A DNA stretch of 64,000 nucleotides from NCBI RefSeq assembly GCF_048403405.1, contig NZ_CP183129.1, one strand, 5' to 3'. The DNA comes from Escherichia coli. GTDB taxonomy: Bacteria; Pseudomonadota; Gammaproteobacteria; Enterobacterales; Enterobacteriaceae. Of this stretch, positions 40,359-49,042 are shown one piece after another. The first letter of the stretch is position 1. Every line of letters starts with the position of its first letter. A program made the position numbers and the translations under genes. Under the pieces are notes generated by a model. It saw only the letters and a list, made by a program, of their open reading frames with translations. It was not told the origin of the DNA and did no database searches.

Positions 40359-40618
40359 TGAAAATCTGACCGAATGTGACGGTTGGCAAGGAAACTATAA
40401 CAGCAGTGAAGATTCGTGGCGAAAGTAATTTGTTGCGAATATTCCTGCCGTTATTTTGTATAAACAATCAGAATAACAAATAGTTAGCAATAGGCTTTTC
40501 GTCAAAGTTTTCCTGGATTTTCCTTGTTTCCAGAACGGATTGGTAAGACAATTAGCGTTTGAGTTTCGAGGGAGATGCAGCAATGTCTCTCAGTAACAGT
40601 ACGCAATATCAATGAGTT

Positions 40619-40657
40619 CAGTGCACTGGTAGCTGTTAAGCCAGGGGCGGTAGCGTG
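40619..40657 (+). promoter_or_regulatory. JUMPStart element with ops site (GGCGGTAGCGTG, 40646-40657) heading the O-antigen cluster
   Basis: cagtgcactggtagctgttaagccaggggcggtagcgtg is nearly identical to the wza copy at 15318-15356. Confidence 0.88.
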
Positions 40658-40667
40658 GATTGATGGA

Positions 40668-41489
40668 ATGAAAAATAAGTGCCCACGAATTGCAGTAATA
40701 ATGTCGGTTTATATTAATGATAAATTTAATGAGTTTAAAGAGGCTTTTGACAGTATTATTAATCAAACATACTCTAACTTTGTTTTCTTTATTTATGCCG
40801 ATGGCAAGATAAATCCAGATATTGAAAGTTTTTTGCAAAATTATAATTCGCAACATGTGATTTTCATTAGAAGTGAAAAAAATAAGGGATTAGCTTATGC
40901 TTTGAATAAATTAATATCAGTGGCGCTAGTTAATAATGAATTTGATTTTATTGCCAGAATGGATGCTGATGATATAAGTTTAGAAGATAGATTTCAACGA
41001 CAAATAGATTTTTTTATGGCTAACCCTGAGTTAGATGTTGTTGGTGGGTTGTGTCAAGAGTTTGGTGGTGAGTCAGCAAGAGAAAAATGCAAGATCTATT
41101 TTACAGATGAAGCCATTAAAAACAATGCCTTTAAAAAATGTCCTTTCGTTCATCCAACCGTGATGTTTAAATCGTCTGTATTTAATAACGGGATGCGATA
41201 CCCTGAAAATCAGCCACTGACAGAAGATATGTGCTTATGGCTCGAGTTAATATCCGCGAATAAAAAGTTTGCAAATATTGACTCCGTTCTTCTAAAGTAC
41301 AGAATTAATGAGCAGACGCTAAAAAGAAGAAGAGGTTTGAATAAGGCTGTAACCGAATTATCCACAAGATTGTATTACGCCAAGAAACTTAAAATGCTTA
41401 GCGTACGGAATTTGTTATATATATTAATCCATTTTGGTGTCAGAGTCCTTTCTTCAAATATATTTAAACTTGTACATAAGTTAAATTAA
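40668..41489 (+). CDS. O-antigen GT2-family glycosyltransferase
   Basis: 273 aa from MKNKCPRIAVIMSVYIND (GT2 N-terminal signature) with the DXD region ARMDADDIS. The start was chosen downstream of the ops element. The ORF-track start at 40575 spans JUMPStart and was rejected. Confidence 0.8.
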   Translation: MKNKCPRIAVIMSVYINDKFNEFKEAFDSIINQTYSNFVFFIYADGKINPDIESFLQNYNSQHVIFIRSEKNKGLAYALNKLISVALVNNEFDFIARMDADDISLEDRFQRQIDFFMANPELDVVGGLCQEFGGESAREKCKIYFTDEAIKNNAFKKCPFVHPTVMFKSSVFNNGMRYPENQPLTEDMCLWLELISANKKFANIDSVLLKYRINEQTLKRRRGLNKAVTELSTRLYYAKKLKMLSVRNLLYILIHFGVRVLSSNIFKLVHKLN

Positions 41490-41490
41490 A

Positions 41491-43257
41491 ATGAATAAAA
41501 CTGTTTATACATATGATGTATGGGATACTATTTTAAAACGTCATTGTTTACCATCATATACGTTAGAGGTTTCGTTGTACTGGCTACTTTTGTATCTTGG
41601 AAAACCTGAGAAACATAAGGATGTGTATAAAAAAGTAAAAGCACTGGAGAGTGATTTTTTTAATCGAAAAGAAGAATATTTTATTGAAGAGCTTATTGTT
41701 GGGATATTAATTGAAAATAATTTAATGAATGGATTTTGCAATAACTCTGTGACTGCTGCTTGGGAACAAATATATTATTTCGTAGAGAGAAATTGTACAT
41801 ATAAAAATAAAGAGGTTATAGAGTTAATTGGGAGTGACTATGGGGACAAATTATTTATTTCTGATTTTTATACTGACTCCAGTTTCATAAAGAAATTGCT
41901 ACACCACCACCAAGTATCGGTTTTAGATGGTGTGACGTCAGCTGAGTATGGCGTCAGTAAGCATATGGGTTCATTGTATGAAAAAATAGAACTATTGAAG
42001 CAAAGGAAATGGATCCATACTGGAGATAATGAATTAGCTGATATAAAAATGGCAAAGCGTGCAGGTGCCCAAGTTAGACTTATAAAATCCAAAAAGAAGA
42101 AAATAAATAAGTTAAAAATAAAAAATGACTATGAGCGGTTAGCATTTATTATTTTGTCCTTTAGCCTGTTTATATTAAAAACTTCCAGAAAGAAAAAGTG
42201 CAATAAGATCTACTTTTTTACAAGGGAGGGGGTTTTTTTCAAAAAAAACTTTGATCTTCTACTAAACCAAATACCTAACATATTCCCATCTATAACTACG
42301 GAAATATTGCCAATCAGTCGAGTAGCCAGCTTAGCATTGAAGTTTAATGAGTCTGATGAATTTTTAGGATTTAATGATGCATTAACCCAGTATGGCTATG
42401 GAGTGTCTACGTTTCTTAGTTTCTTTCATCTTGATGATTGTTACTCCGAGCTCACAACAAAGTATCATGATGTAAATGATTTATTATCTCACAGAAATGA
42501 TCCTTTGGTAAAACAACTAATAAAAAGTATAGAGGATAAAAAAAAACGAACAGAAAATTTTCTTACATCCATTGAGTTCGATTCTGAGCCAAGTATCATC
42601 GTGGATATTGGTTGGCGGGGTAGCATCCAAGATAATTTAATGTCGCGGAAAAATAATTATATTCAACATGGATGTTATCTCGGATTGTTTGATTTTTACC
42701 CAGGCCAGTCAGGTCAGAATAAATCATCTGTAATTTTTGATAACAACAGATTTAGACAAAAATGGACCATGAAAGGTGTAGCTTTTATGGAGACGGTTTT
42801 CAATGCTTTGGACGGAAGTGTTGTCGATTATGTAAACAATAAACCGAAAAGAAAAGAAAATTACGCTGAGATAGAAAATTCAAAACATTTAATAGTTATG
42901 CAAGATGCTATCATTGAGGAATTTATGAATCTATCTATTATGTTAAAAGAGGGAAAGTTAAATATCAATGATATTGAAAGATTAGCTATTGAAAGTTACA
43001 AAAAAATAGTAACTAACCCATCTAAAGAAATAGCTGATTTTTATGTTGGCAGTATCCAAAATGAAAGCTTCGGTTTGAATGATTTTATCGACAAAGAATT
43101 TAACATTAGCGCAGTAGATGTTTTCCGAAGTTTTTTTTCTAAAAGTAAAAGAAATGAAATAAGAATAAAATTGCATAGAAATGGATGGCGTGAGTCGATA
43201 CTTAAATCCTCTAAAGTATCGCTGAGCGCAAAATTATGTTCACTTTTAATTAGATAA
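41491..43257 (+). CDS. Uncharacterised 588-aa protein: N-terminal HAD-like hydrolase motifs + unknown C-terminal ~390 aa
   Basis: Motif I-like YDVWDTIL at residues 8-15 and motif IV-like HTGDNELADIKMAKRAGA near residue 180. The rest has no motif I recognise. The gene is tightly packed between two GT genes (1-3 nt gaps). Confidence 0.6.
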   Translation: MNKTVYTYDVWDTILKRHCLPSYTLEVSLYWLLLYLGKPEKHKDVYKKVKALESDFFNRKEEYFIEELIVGILIENNLMNGFCNNSVTAAWEQIYYFVERNCTYKNKEVIELIGSDYGDKLFISDFYTDSSFIKKLLHHHQVSVLDGVTSAEYGVSKHMGSLYEKIELLKQRKWIHTGDNELADIKMAKRAGAQVRLIKSKKKKINKLKIKNDYERLAFIILSFSLFILKTSRKKKCNKIYFFTREGVFFKKNFDLLLNQIPNIFPSITTEILPISRVASLALKFNESDEFLGFNDALTQYGYGVSTFLSFFHLDDCYSELTTKYHDVNDLLSHRNDPLVKQLIKSIEDKKKRTENFLTSIEFDSEPSIIVDIGWRGSIQDNLMSRKNNYIQHGCYLGLFDFYPGQSGQNKSSVIFDNNRFRQKWTMKGVAFMETVFNALDGSVVDYVNNKPKRKENYAEIENSKHLIVMQDAIIEEFMNLSIMLKEGKLNINDIERLAIESYKKIVTNPSKEIADFYVGSIQNESFGLNDFIDKEFNISAVDVFRSFFSKSKRNEIRIKLHRNGWRESILKSSKVSLSAKLCSLLIR

Positions 43258-43260
43258 AAT

Positions 43261-47903: not shown

Positions 47904-47958
47904 GGTGATGCTGCCAACTTACTGATTTAGTGTATGATGGTGTTTTTGAGGTGCTCCA

Positions 47959-48234
47959 GTGGCTTCTGTTTCTATCAGCTGTCCCTCCTGTTCAGCTACT
48001 GACGGGGTGGTGCGTAACGGCAAAAGCACCGCCGGACATCAGCGCTATCTCTGCTCTCACTGCCGTAAAACATGGCAACTGCAGTTCACTTACACCGCTT
48101 CTCAACCCGGTACGCACCAGAAAATCATTGATATGGCCATGAATGGCGTTGGATGCCGGGCAACCGCCCGCATTATGGGCGTTGGCCTCAACACGATTTT
48201 CCGCCATTTAAAAAACTCAGGCCGCAGTCGGTAA
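47959..48234 (+). CDS. insA: IS1 InsA (transposition inhibitor / N-terminal part of InsAB' transposase)
   Basis: 91 aa. [43 protein letters not shown]... is the canonical InsA. Confidence 0.96.
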
Positions 48235-48656
48235 CCTCGCGCATACAGCCGGGCAGTGACGTCATCGTCTGCGCGGAAATGGACGAACAGTGGGGATACG
48301 TCGGGGCTAAATCGCGCCAGCGCTGGCTGTTTTACGCGTATGACAGGCTCCGGAAGACGGTTGTTGCGCACGTATTCGGTGAACGCACTATGGCGACGCT
48401 GGGGCGTCTTATGAGCCTGCTGTCACCCTTTGACGTGGTGATATGGATGACGGATGGCTGGCCGCTGTATGAATCCCGCCTGAAGGGAAAGCTGCACGTA
48501 ATCAGCAAGCGATATACGCAGCGAATTGAGCGGCATAACCTGAATCTGAGGCAGCACCTGGCACGGCTGGGACGGAAGTCGCTGTCGTTCTCAAAATCGG
48601 TGGAGCTGCATGACAAAGTCATCGGGCATTATCTGAACATAAAACACTATCAATAA
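48153..48656 (+). CDS. insB: IS1 insB' reading frame (expressed as InsAB' by -1 frameshift at TTAAAAAAC)
   Basis: 167-codon frame overlapping the insA 3' end, with the slippery A6C at 48210-48216. Confidence 0.93.
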
Positions 48657-48671
48657 GTTGGAGTCATTACC

Positions 48672-48928
48672 GGTTACGAGTAGTGGCATCTGGATTTGAT
48701 GTGTGTAACATTAATGAGTCGTTAATATTAGCTAGAGTTGGTGATAATATGTTGGCTAGGCGAAAAGGGCTGAGGTATATAAAAAGTGAATTCCAACTTT
48801 ATCGGCTAAAAGTTAAACTTGGTTTGCAGTCACATATATCTGGATTCTGCATTTTGTTAGTAAGAAGCATTCCGCGATTACTCCCTCTAAAGGTCTTAAA
48901 AATTATTTACCAATATATTCGGAAGTAA
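48672..48928 (+). other. Right-hand remnant of the IS1-disrupted gene (same phase as left part), ends at TAA 48926-48928
   Basis: The frame is open from the IS1 junction (RLRVVASGFDVCNINESLILARVGDNMLARRKGL...). It is in phase with the left fragment because 768 is divisible by 3. The ESL tripeptide and a following L-x-x-x-K-G-L pattern are reminiscent of the start of a sulfatase-type catalytic domain, but only about 85 codons remain. Confidence 0.4.
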
Positions 48929-49042
48929 TTATATAATAATTCTGAAGATTGCACTCTTATTTTTTCTTAGTTGTATCTTTGTATGTTAACATTACGTTTA
49001 AACCGAACCGCTAAGACGGTAATTTCGTGACAGGAGTAAACA

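Follow-up and report, generated by a model that had tools for sequence, protein, structure and literature searches.

The O-antigen locus described here is an 8,684-bp interval between galF and gnd (positions 40359-49042) in a 64,000-nucleotide stretch of Escherichia coli contig NZ_CP183129.1 (assembly GCF_048403405.1); this whole stretch is what we call the window. The closest described counterpart of the locus is the gene cluster of serogroup O153, whose O antigen is one of the few in E. coli that contain ribofuranose (Ribf), in this case D-Ribf, and whose cluster is recorded in a 2019 review with 'one less glycosyltransferase than expected' (PMC7685785). The second described system with a bearing on the locus is the PRP-gPRT family of enzymes, which transfer a phosphoribosyl group from phosphoribosyl pyrophosphate (PRPP) and then strip the 5-phosphate by means of the N-terminal PRP module (PMC11127046, PMC11294581).

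We consider it highly probable that the interval is a standard Wzx/Wzy-dependent O153 cluster that carries a 588-aa Ribf transferase, an ancestral scar of the insertion sequence (IS) IS1, and a wzy frameshift private to this genome. The O153 cluster is already known, as are the ribofuranosyltransferase family and IS1; the present analysis adds a functional name for a gene still labelled hypothetical, and the finding that the IS1 scar dates back to an ancestor and is a chimera of an O153-type stub and an O37-type tail. An initial annotation, made from the sequence alone, had given the gene order as a GT2 glycosyltransferase, a HAD-fusion gene, a second GT2, a split wzy, a GT4 glycosyltransferase, wzx, and an OpgB-like gene followed by IS1, and matches to Pfam and NCBIfam families bear this order out. 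All genes and elements from gnu, upstream of galF, to gnd are on the plus strand.

Assignment of the cluster to serogroup O153

Of 5,426 complete E. coli genomes compared with the interval by megablast, 76 contain 80% or more of it, and the best 40 of these 76 match at 99.9-100% identity and are contiguous through IS1. The chromosome of isolate 2011C-4315 of the Centers for Disease Control and Prevention (CP024479.1) holds 100% of the interval in one piece at 99.9% identity, IS1 included, and this strain is reported as O153:H2 (PMC4929515). A multiplex polymerase chain reaction (PCR) set validated on O153 strains contains a pair of O153 wzx primers with a 741-bp product (PMC7403468 supplement); both primers have exact sites in the window, one at 46531 and the other at 47271, spaced to give 741 bp, the published size. 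The presence of a Ribf-transferase gene in the cluster agrees with a Ribf-containing O153 unit. Set against the O153 clusters of 2011C-4315, SMS-3-5 and TW11681, the cluster in the window is alike in its galF-gnd site, its gene order and both IS1 junctions, and the likeness among the matches listed is 99.9-100% over 8.7 kb; it differs in that wzy has lost 1 bp, a private deletion, and the first GT2 has a private P293S substitution. The gene boundaries of a known serogroup are thus shared at IS1 and are not shared at wzy.

Several points weigh against this reading. One primer pair and one strain of reported serotype stand behind the O153 assignment, and the source paper is silent on how that strain was serotyped. 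The Prokaryotic Genome Annotation Pipeline (PGAP) marks wzx as partial in some genomes, on DNA that is identical to that of genomes annotated as intact. The wzy deletion, found in a single assembly within a run of three T residues, could be an assembly error. The linkages that we assign to the O unit derive from a structure reportedly determined by Ratnayake et al. in 1994. Finally, Iguchi et al. are quoted in a later paper as having found the O153 and O178 clusters 99.9% identical, a result that DebRoy et al. dispute (PMC4732683); an O153 cluster is deposited under accession KJ755551.

This last point raises the alternative that the cluster is that of O178, or a merged O153/O178 genotype, and not O153 proper. 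The identity quoted in that paper speaks for it, and so do the facts that the O153 and O178 antigens both contain Ribf, that each cluster is one expected glycosyltransferase short, and that the review places gnu just upstream of galF in O178, the same arrangement as in the window (PMC7685785). However, the O178 wzx primers of the same PCR set, which were validated on the O178 standard strain, find no site in the window even with 3 mismatches allowed, and the O153 primers fit it without any (PMC7403468); the same cluster is carried by a strain reported as O153:H2, and when DebRoy et al. compared their clusters of the two serogroups, these showed no similarity (PMC4732683). We regard the O178 or merged genotype as improbable, and retain O153 as the assignment.

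The genome of SMS-3-5 carries the O153-type cluster at NC_010498.1:1043148-1051832 (locus L001). This strain was reportedly published as O19:H34, and that serotype and the genotype appear to conflict. An O19 serotype of SMS-3-5 and TW11681 had made serogroup O19 a suspect for the cluster in the window. It was dropped because the O19 antigen contains several L-rhamnose residues (PMC7685785) and the cluster is without rml genes.

A predicted two-module ribofuranosyltransferase

The second gene of the cluster (41491-43257) encodes a protein of 588 aa that PGAP labels 'hypothetical protein' in every genome looked at. Searches of Pfam and NCBIfam gave no significant match for it, with a single sub-threshold hit to DUF6642. 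A phmmer search of the sequences in the Protein Data Bank (PDB) returned one match, 7SHG, 'Ribofuranosyl transferase' (E 4.3e-14), in which residues 7-534 of the protein align with chain residues 39-635 at 21% identity. The same entry is the best PDB match found by Foldseek (7shg, E 1.3e-22, TM 0.65, 595 columns) for an AlphaFold2 model of the protein, which was built on a 50-sequence alignment and has a predicted local distance difference test score (pLDDT) of 91.7 and a predicted template modelling score (pTM) of 0.92. The Haemophilus influenzae type b (Hib) capsule multienzyme Bcs3 (8a0c/8a0m) comes second, and plain HAD proteins cover about 220 residues, confined to the N-terminal domain. 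Many of the 109 homologues of the protein have an N-terminal Pfam HAD domain. Across 50 homologues, the invariant or near-invariant positions form a HAD-like set in the N-terminal part (D9, W11-D12-T13, S124-D125, K157, G178-D179 and D184) and a second set in the C-terminal part (T244-R245-E246-G247 and VDIGWRGxIQDN at 371-382).

Judged by its sequence and modelled fold, the 588-aa protein is predicted to consist of an N-terminal HAD-type phosphatase (PRP) and a C-terminal gPRT ribofuranosyltransferase, with PRPP as the likely donor and beta-Ribf as the product. It has the same two-module plan as the PRP-gPRT enzymes 7SHG from Thermobacillus composti and STM0726 from Salmonella, and as the corresponding modules of H. 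influenzae Bcs3; ribofuranosyltransferases of this type were reportedly characterised by Kelly et al. in 2022. The match to 7SHG spans the full length in both sequence and fold, yet the two proteins are as distant as the identity given above, and activity, acceptor and linkage are predictions for the 588-aa protein. A further difference lies in the setting: STM0726 is part of an ABC-transporter-dependent system, the present gene of a Wzx/Wzy-dependent cluster.

This identification changes what the gene would contribute to the O antigen. The HAD domain had been taken as the mark of a phospho-linked substituent; because a PRP phosphatase removes phosphate and leaves none behind, a HAD domain in a PRP-gPRT enzyme is no sign of such a substituent. 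As a Ribf transferase, the 588-aa protein would be the missing fourth transferase of the cluster, which would explain why O153 is on record as having one glycosyltransferase too few. The label 'hypothetical protein' can be replaced by the name PRPP-dependent ribofuranosyltransferase.

The seventh gene and its chimeric IS1 junction

The last of the seven genes is present as a 5' stub of 145 codons (47468-47903) of an OpgB/LtaS-like sulfatase-fold transferase, and it ends at a 768-bp copy of IS1 (47904-48671). The stub aligns with the model for phosphoglycerol transferase I (NCBIfam PRK12363, 703 positions) over positions 12-147 (E 1.5e-11), in line with the initial annotation of an OpgB-like gene cut by IS1; it has no Pfam match, and so lacks the catalytic Sulfatase domain (PF00884). 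In strain TST3 the gene is intact and encodes a 738-aa 'sulfatase-like hydrolase/transferase'; the stub equals the first 145 aa of this protein at 100% identity, and the TST3 sequence runs on from the very point at which IS1 begins in the window. The identity of the stub to the corresponding gene of a metagenomic contig (L008) is 88%. The Sulfatase domain of the TST3 protein lies at residues 153-433, past the IS1 breakpoint, and the L008 protein has the domain as well. In comparison with OpgB (MdoB)/LtaS-type transferases, what is left resembles the N-terminal region, 145 of 738 codons, and the catalytic domain is gone.

Two otherwise colinear loci mark this seventh gene as accessory: a Salmonella-like contig (L007) is without it, and L008 has it intact. 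The Salmonella-like contig contains galF, a GT2 gene (273 aa), the Ribf transferase gene, a second GT2 gene, wzy, a GT4 gene, wzx and gnd, with products at 62-68% aa identity, and both the seventh gene and an IS are absent; the metagenomic contig has the same six genes at 86-92% aa identity together with the intact 738-aa Sulfatase-domain gene. A search of the 5,426 E. coli genomes for the 3' portion of the intact gene found it in two of them, TST3 and TBE6, and in no other. The TST3 cluster (CP154406.1:1177730-1194187, locus L005) is itself degraded, the equivalent of 41122-44700 of the window being missing; it also has an IS1 just after galF, three copies of ISAeme16 (IS630-like), and a gnd that is 87% identical to that of the window.

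The IS1 copy is bounded by 23-bp terminal inverted repeats (47904-47926 and 48649-48671) and contains the insA and insB open reading frames (ORFs), which PGAP annotates in relatives as an IS1A/IS1B family transposase with programmed frameshift. The junction between stub and IS1 (47754-48053) is identical in 75 complete genomes, compared with 77-79 that have the neighbouring unique segments. IS1 has been in the O153 cluster since an ancestral stage and is all but fixed there, and it is compatible with O153 expression, since the strain reported as O153:H2 carries the same IS1. Of the two independent lesions that had been proposed for the locus, the one in wzy is upheld, as its deletion is shared by 0 of 79 genomes, and the one at IS1 is not, as its junction is common property; IS1 in an O153 cluster should not be taken as a sign of a rough strain. 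Laboratory strains offer a comparison in wbbL::IS5 of K-12 and the IS1 insertion of E. coli B: both likewise have an IS inside the O-antigen locus, and the present case is unlike them in that IS1 is fixed in a still-expressed serogroup and hits an accessory gene only.

No target-site duplication of 8-9 bp is found at IS1 (left flank TCAATAGTA, right flank GGTTACGAG), and the two flanks derive from different genes, the sulfatase-like stub on the left and the tail of an O37-type GT2 gene on the right. The latter is not the remainder of the OpgB-like gene. The 371 bp between IS1 and gnd (48672-49042) are 100% identical to the O37-type cluster of strain KE58 (L006:11001-11371), where 257 bp of them close the terminal GT2 gene and the rest is the intergenic region; the relic in the window retains the last 84 codons and the stop (to 48928), and its translation is the C-terminus of the KE58 terminal GT2. 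PGAP names the flippase (wzx) and polymerase (wzy) genes of the KE58 cluster 'O37 family'. Whereas the segment from IS1 to gnd is the same in the two clusters, that from JUMPStart to IS1 has no detectable nucleotide similarity to KE58; the KE58 cluster has a wzx, a wzy and glycosyltransferases of its own, together with a cytidylyltransferase-family gene. In this arrangement IS1 bridges two unrelated O-antigen clusters, the signature of an IS1-mediated deletion or recombination and not of simple insertion. The O153/O37 junction bridged by IS1 offers a small, clean case of O-antigen locus remodelling.

The similarity to KE58 continues beyond the locus. In a comparison of 48672-53000 of the window with L006:11001-15328, identity is 100% for the first 200 bp past IS1 and falls unevenly through gnd, ugd and wzzB, reaching about 55 mismatches per 200 bp near 52270-52469, a pattern that points to a mosaic of recombination tracts on the downstream side of the locus.

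A more far-reaching account would make IS1 the fossil of a serogroup switch, in which an O153-progenitor cluster with an intact, phospho-decorating OpgB-like gene entered a locus holding an O37-type cluster, and recombination at IS1 then deleted the modifier gene and gave rise to the present O153 epitope. Combined with the selection for loss of surface polysaccharide considered in the next section, this account is offered tentatively, and we think it rather doubtful that both halves hold together.

The wzy frameshift and other private changes

The wzy gene (44133-45310) is split into ORFs at 44133-44849 and 44861-45310, both of which match NCBIfam TIGR04370. Relative to SMS-3-5, TW11681 and the Spanish hospital isolate 68 (OX030728.1), which have intact Wzy in forms of 392 aa and 388 aa, a single base is deleted at 44835-44836 (TTT to TT, GTTTG to GTTG), so that the split, correctly suspected from the outset to be an inactivating frameshift, is one that relatives do not have. 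The shifted frame encodes 234 of the 392 native residues, followed by LMKI and a stop at 44847-44849, and the C-terminal 149 codons are in another frame (44861-45310); of the two pathway genes, wzx is unbroken, and wzy is present but interrupted after codon 234. The deletion occurs in 0 of the 79 complete genomes with the same segment, all of which have the extra T. Exact look-ups of the 238-aa and 234-aa truncated products in public assemblies found neither; a look-up by protein cluster, which covered about 15 billion sequences, placed the 234-aa form on one contig only, of 5,471,390 bp, and the intact Wzy on at least 1,000 contigs. An intact Wzy is on record as WP_001214007.1. The frameshift is private to the source genome, having arisen either by recent mutation or as an error of assembly, and apart from P293S in the first GT2 it is the only part of our account of the cluster that is specific to this genome.

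If the deletion were a sequencing or assembly error, the genome would have an ordinary intact O153 cluster and smooth lipopolysaccharide (LPS). The position of the deletion in a homopolymer, its occurrence in exactly one assembly, the single contig with the truncated product, and the lack of any other indel against the closest genome over 64 kb are all as an error would have them. A run of 3 nt is, however, short for a typical homopolymer error, and a sole indel in 64 kb also means that the assembly is not riddled with indels; no Dam or Dcm motif is present at the site, and three further point changes against the nearest genome, one of them a stop codon in yeeY, suggest true divergence. On balance we think an error somewhat unlikely, and continue with the deletion as a mutation of this strain.

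Mutants in wzy (rfc) make semi-rough LPS, that is, lipid A-core with a single O unit. By analogy with this established behaviour, the frameshift, if real, predicts semi-rough LPS for this strain and not a strictly O-negative one; the rough, O-antigen-negative phenotype first proposed is not what loss of wzy is expected to give. In-silico serotypers would return O153 for a genome in which semi-rough LPS is predicted, a discrepancy that matters for its use in serology and in work on phage or serum sensitivity.

The genomes nearest to the window are clinical. Over the full 64 kb, isolate 68 differs by 3 single-nucleotide polymorphisms and 1 indel, and strains 4621, MS 69-1 and TUM1226 are near-identical over the first 25 kb. 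The laboratory strains E. coli B, W, C and Crooks had been considered as the source and were dropped because the closest genomes are clinical isolates, and the suggestion of a long-passaged laboratory strain finds no support.

All four differences from the nearest genome alter proteins. They are A56S in wcaA (gene at 19381-20220, change at 19546), which sets the window apart from its three closest genomes; P293S, in ORF numbering, in the first GT2 (41451; private, 0 of 77 genomes); the wzy frameshift (44835); and W285* in yeeY (gene at 61611-62540, TGG to TGA at 62463-62465, change at 62465; private, 0 of 5,050 complete genomes with the segment), which removes 25 residues of the LysR-type regulator YeeY. 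Three of the four are in surface-polysaccharide genes and two are truncating, although four changes are too few for statistics; none of the private changes lies at a Dam or Dcm motif, a source of nanopore errors. One possible cause is that pressure from phage or host has recently favoured the loss of surface polysaccharide in a clinical lineage.

Predicted assembly of the O unit

Directly upstream of galF is gnu (38227-39222), for an undecaprenyl-diphosphate (Und-PP)-GlcNAc 4-epimerase (Pfam Epimerase, E 8.5e-31). This stretch is identical to that of isolate 68, in which PGAP gives the product the name N-acetyl-alpha-D-glucosaminyl-diphospho-undecaprenol 4-epimerase (WP_000999466.1), and we infer that it makes Und-PP-GalNAc, with GalNAc as the initiating sugar. 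Besides the Ribf transferase, the cluster encodes a first inverting GT2 (40668-41489, within an ORF from 40575; Pfam Glycos_transf_2, E 2.9e-17), a second inverting GT2 of 290 aa (43261-44133; Glycos_transf_2, E 3.7e-20) and a retaining GT4 of 341 aa (45261-46286; Glycos_transf_1, E 5.6e-27, and Glyco_transf_4, E 2e-10). The O-unit flippase Wzx, of 392 aa, is encoded by an unbroken ORF at 46267-47445 (Polysacc_synt, E 3.3e-8). Searches of Pfam and NCBIfam placed no ORF of at least 100 aa between galF and gnd in a family of sugar-nucleotide pathways, which substantiates the earlier description of a non-K-12, Wzx/Wzy-type cluster without dedicated genes for nucleoside diphosphate (NDP)-sugars.

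From these genes the following assembly may be proposed. WecA, encoded elsewhere, would make Und-PP-GlcNAc, which Gnu would epimerise to Und-PP-GalNAc. The two inverting GT2 enzymes and the retaining GT4 would then add hexoses from housekeeping UDP-sugars, and the 588-aa protein would add beta-D-ribofuranose as the last sugar, its gPRT module moving ribose-5-phosphate from PRPP and its PRP module stripping the 5-phosphate. With housekeeping UDP-sugars and a PRPP route, no NDP-sugar genes would be needed. Wzx would flip the product, Wzy would polymerise it, and WzzB would set the chain length. Four transferases together with WecA and Gnu lead us to expect a Ribf-containing pentasaccharide. The O153 unit is reportedly 2)-beta-Ribf-(1-4)-beta-Gal-(1-4)-alpha-GlcNAc-(1-4)-beta-Gal-(1-3)-alpha-GalNAc-(1, a structure that would correspond well to a set of two inverting GT2 enzymes, one retaining GT4 and one Ribf transferase; the activities and linkages proposed here are predictions. 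The seventh gene may once have encoded an accessory OpgB/LtaS-like periplasmic phospho-transferase, of which an IS1-mediated event in the O153 lineage would have left 145 codons while joining the cluster to the O37-type tail; such a scar would be ancestral and harmless to O153 expression. In the present genome, should the wzy deletion be real, each O unit would be synthesised and flipped, then ligated on its own, with semi-rough LPS as the outcome.

The initial annotation had arrived at a different unit, counting WecA and three transferases for a tetrasaccharide, with a phospho-substituent contributed by the HAD-like and OpgB-like genes, and had combined it with two independent lesions in a long-passaged laboratory strain. 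Parts of this have a basis, in that a private wzy frameshift is present in the sequence, and the last gene is OpgB-like and has intact versions in relatives, so that an ancestor may have had a phospho substituent. The combination is nevertheless very improbable: the HAD domain is part of a predicted PRP-gPRT Ribf transferase whose phosphatase would take phosphate off, IS1 is common to 75 genomes including the strain reported as O153:H2, what lies to the right of IS1 is not the remainder of the OpgB-like gene, and the nearest genomes are clinical isolates. The fourth transferase makes a pentasaccharide the expected product, and the O153 cluster, with its predicted Ribf transferase, remains the reading that we prefer.

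Borders, composition and gene starts

The borders of the locus follow from the ORF list and the annotation of relatives. The left border is the end, at 40358, of galF (39465-40358; Pfam NTP_transferase), annotated as galF in SMS-3-5 and isolate 68, and the right border is the start, at 49043, of gnd (49043-50449), from the ORF list and named gndA in relatives. The shift to AT-rich composition between them, relieved by a GC-richer IS1, had been noted before and is borne out: the GC fraction is 0.29-0.38 over 40500-48000 compared with 0.49-0.57 in the flanks, and the sole GC-rich block in the cluster, at 48000-48499 (0.568), is IS1.

A 39-bp sequence at 40619-40657 (CAGTGCACTGGTAGCTGTTAAGCCAGGGGCGGTAGCGTG) matches the JUMPStart consensus; it contains ops (GGCGGTAG, at 40646-40653), the signal for RfaH antitermination of the operon. 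The 304-aa ORF that PGAP calls for the first GT2, from 40575, reads through JUMPStart and ops. Because the ORF crosses JUMPStart, and because the orthologue on the Salmonella-like contig is called with 273 aa, the first GT2 probably starts not at 40575, as had been assumed, but at the ATG at 40668, giving a protein of 273 aa.

The annotation of wzx (46267-47445 in the window; L001:8910-10088 and L003:16617-17795 in relatives) varies between genomes. PGAP gives an intact 392-aa flippase in TW11681, and in SMS-3-5 and isolate 68 it gives a 'partial, missing C-terminus' pseudogene and a 144-aa hypothetical protein on identical DNA; the 'partial' calls are an inconsistency of annotation and not a lesion.

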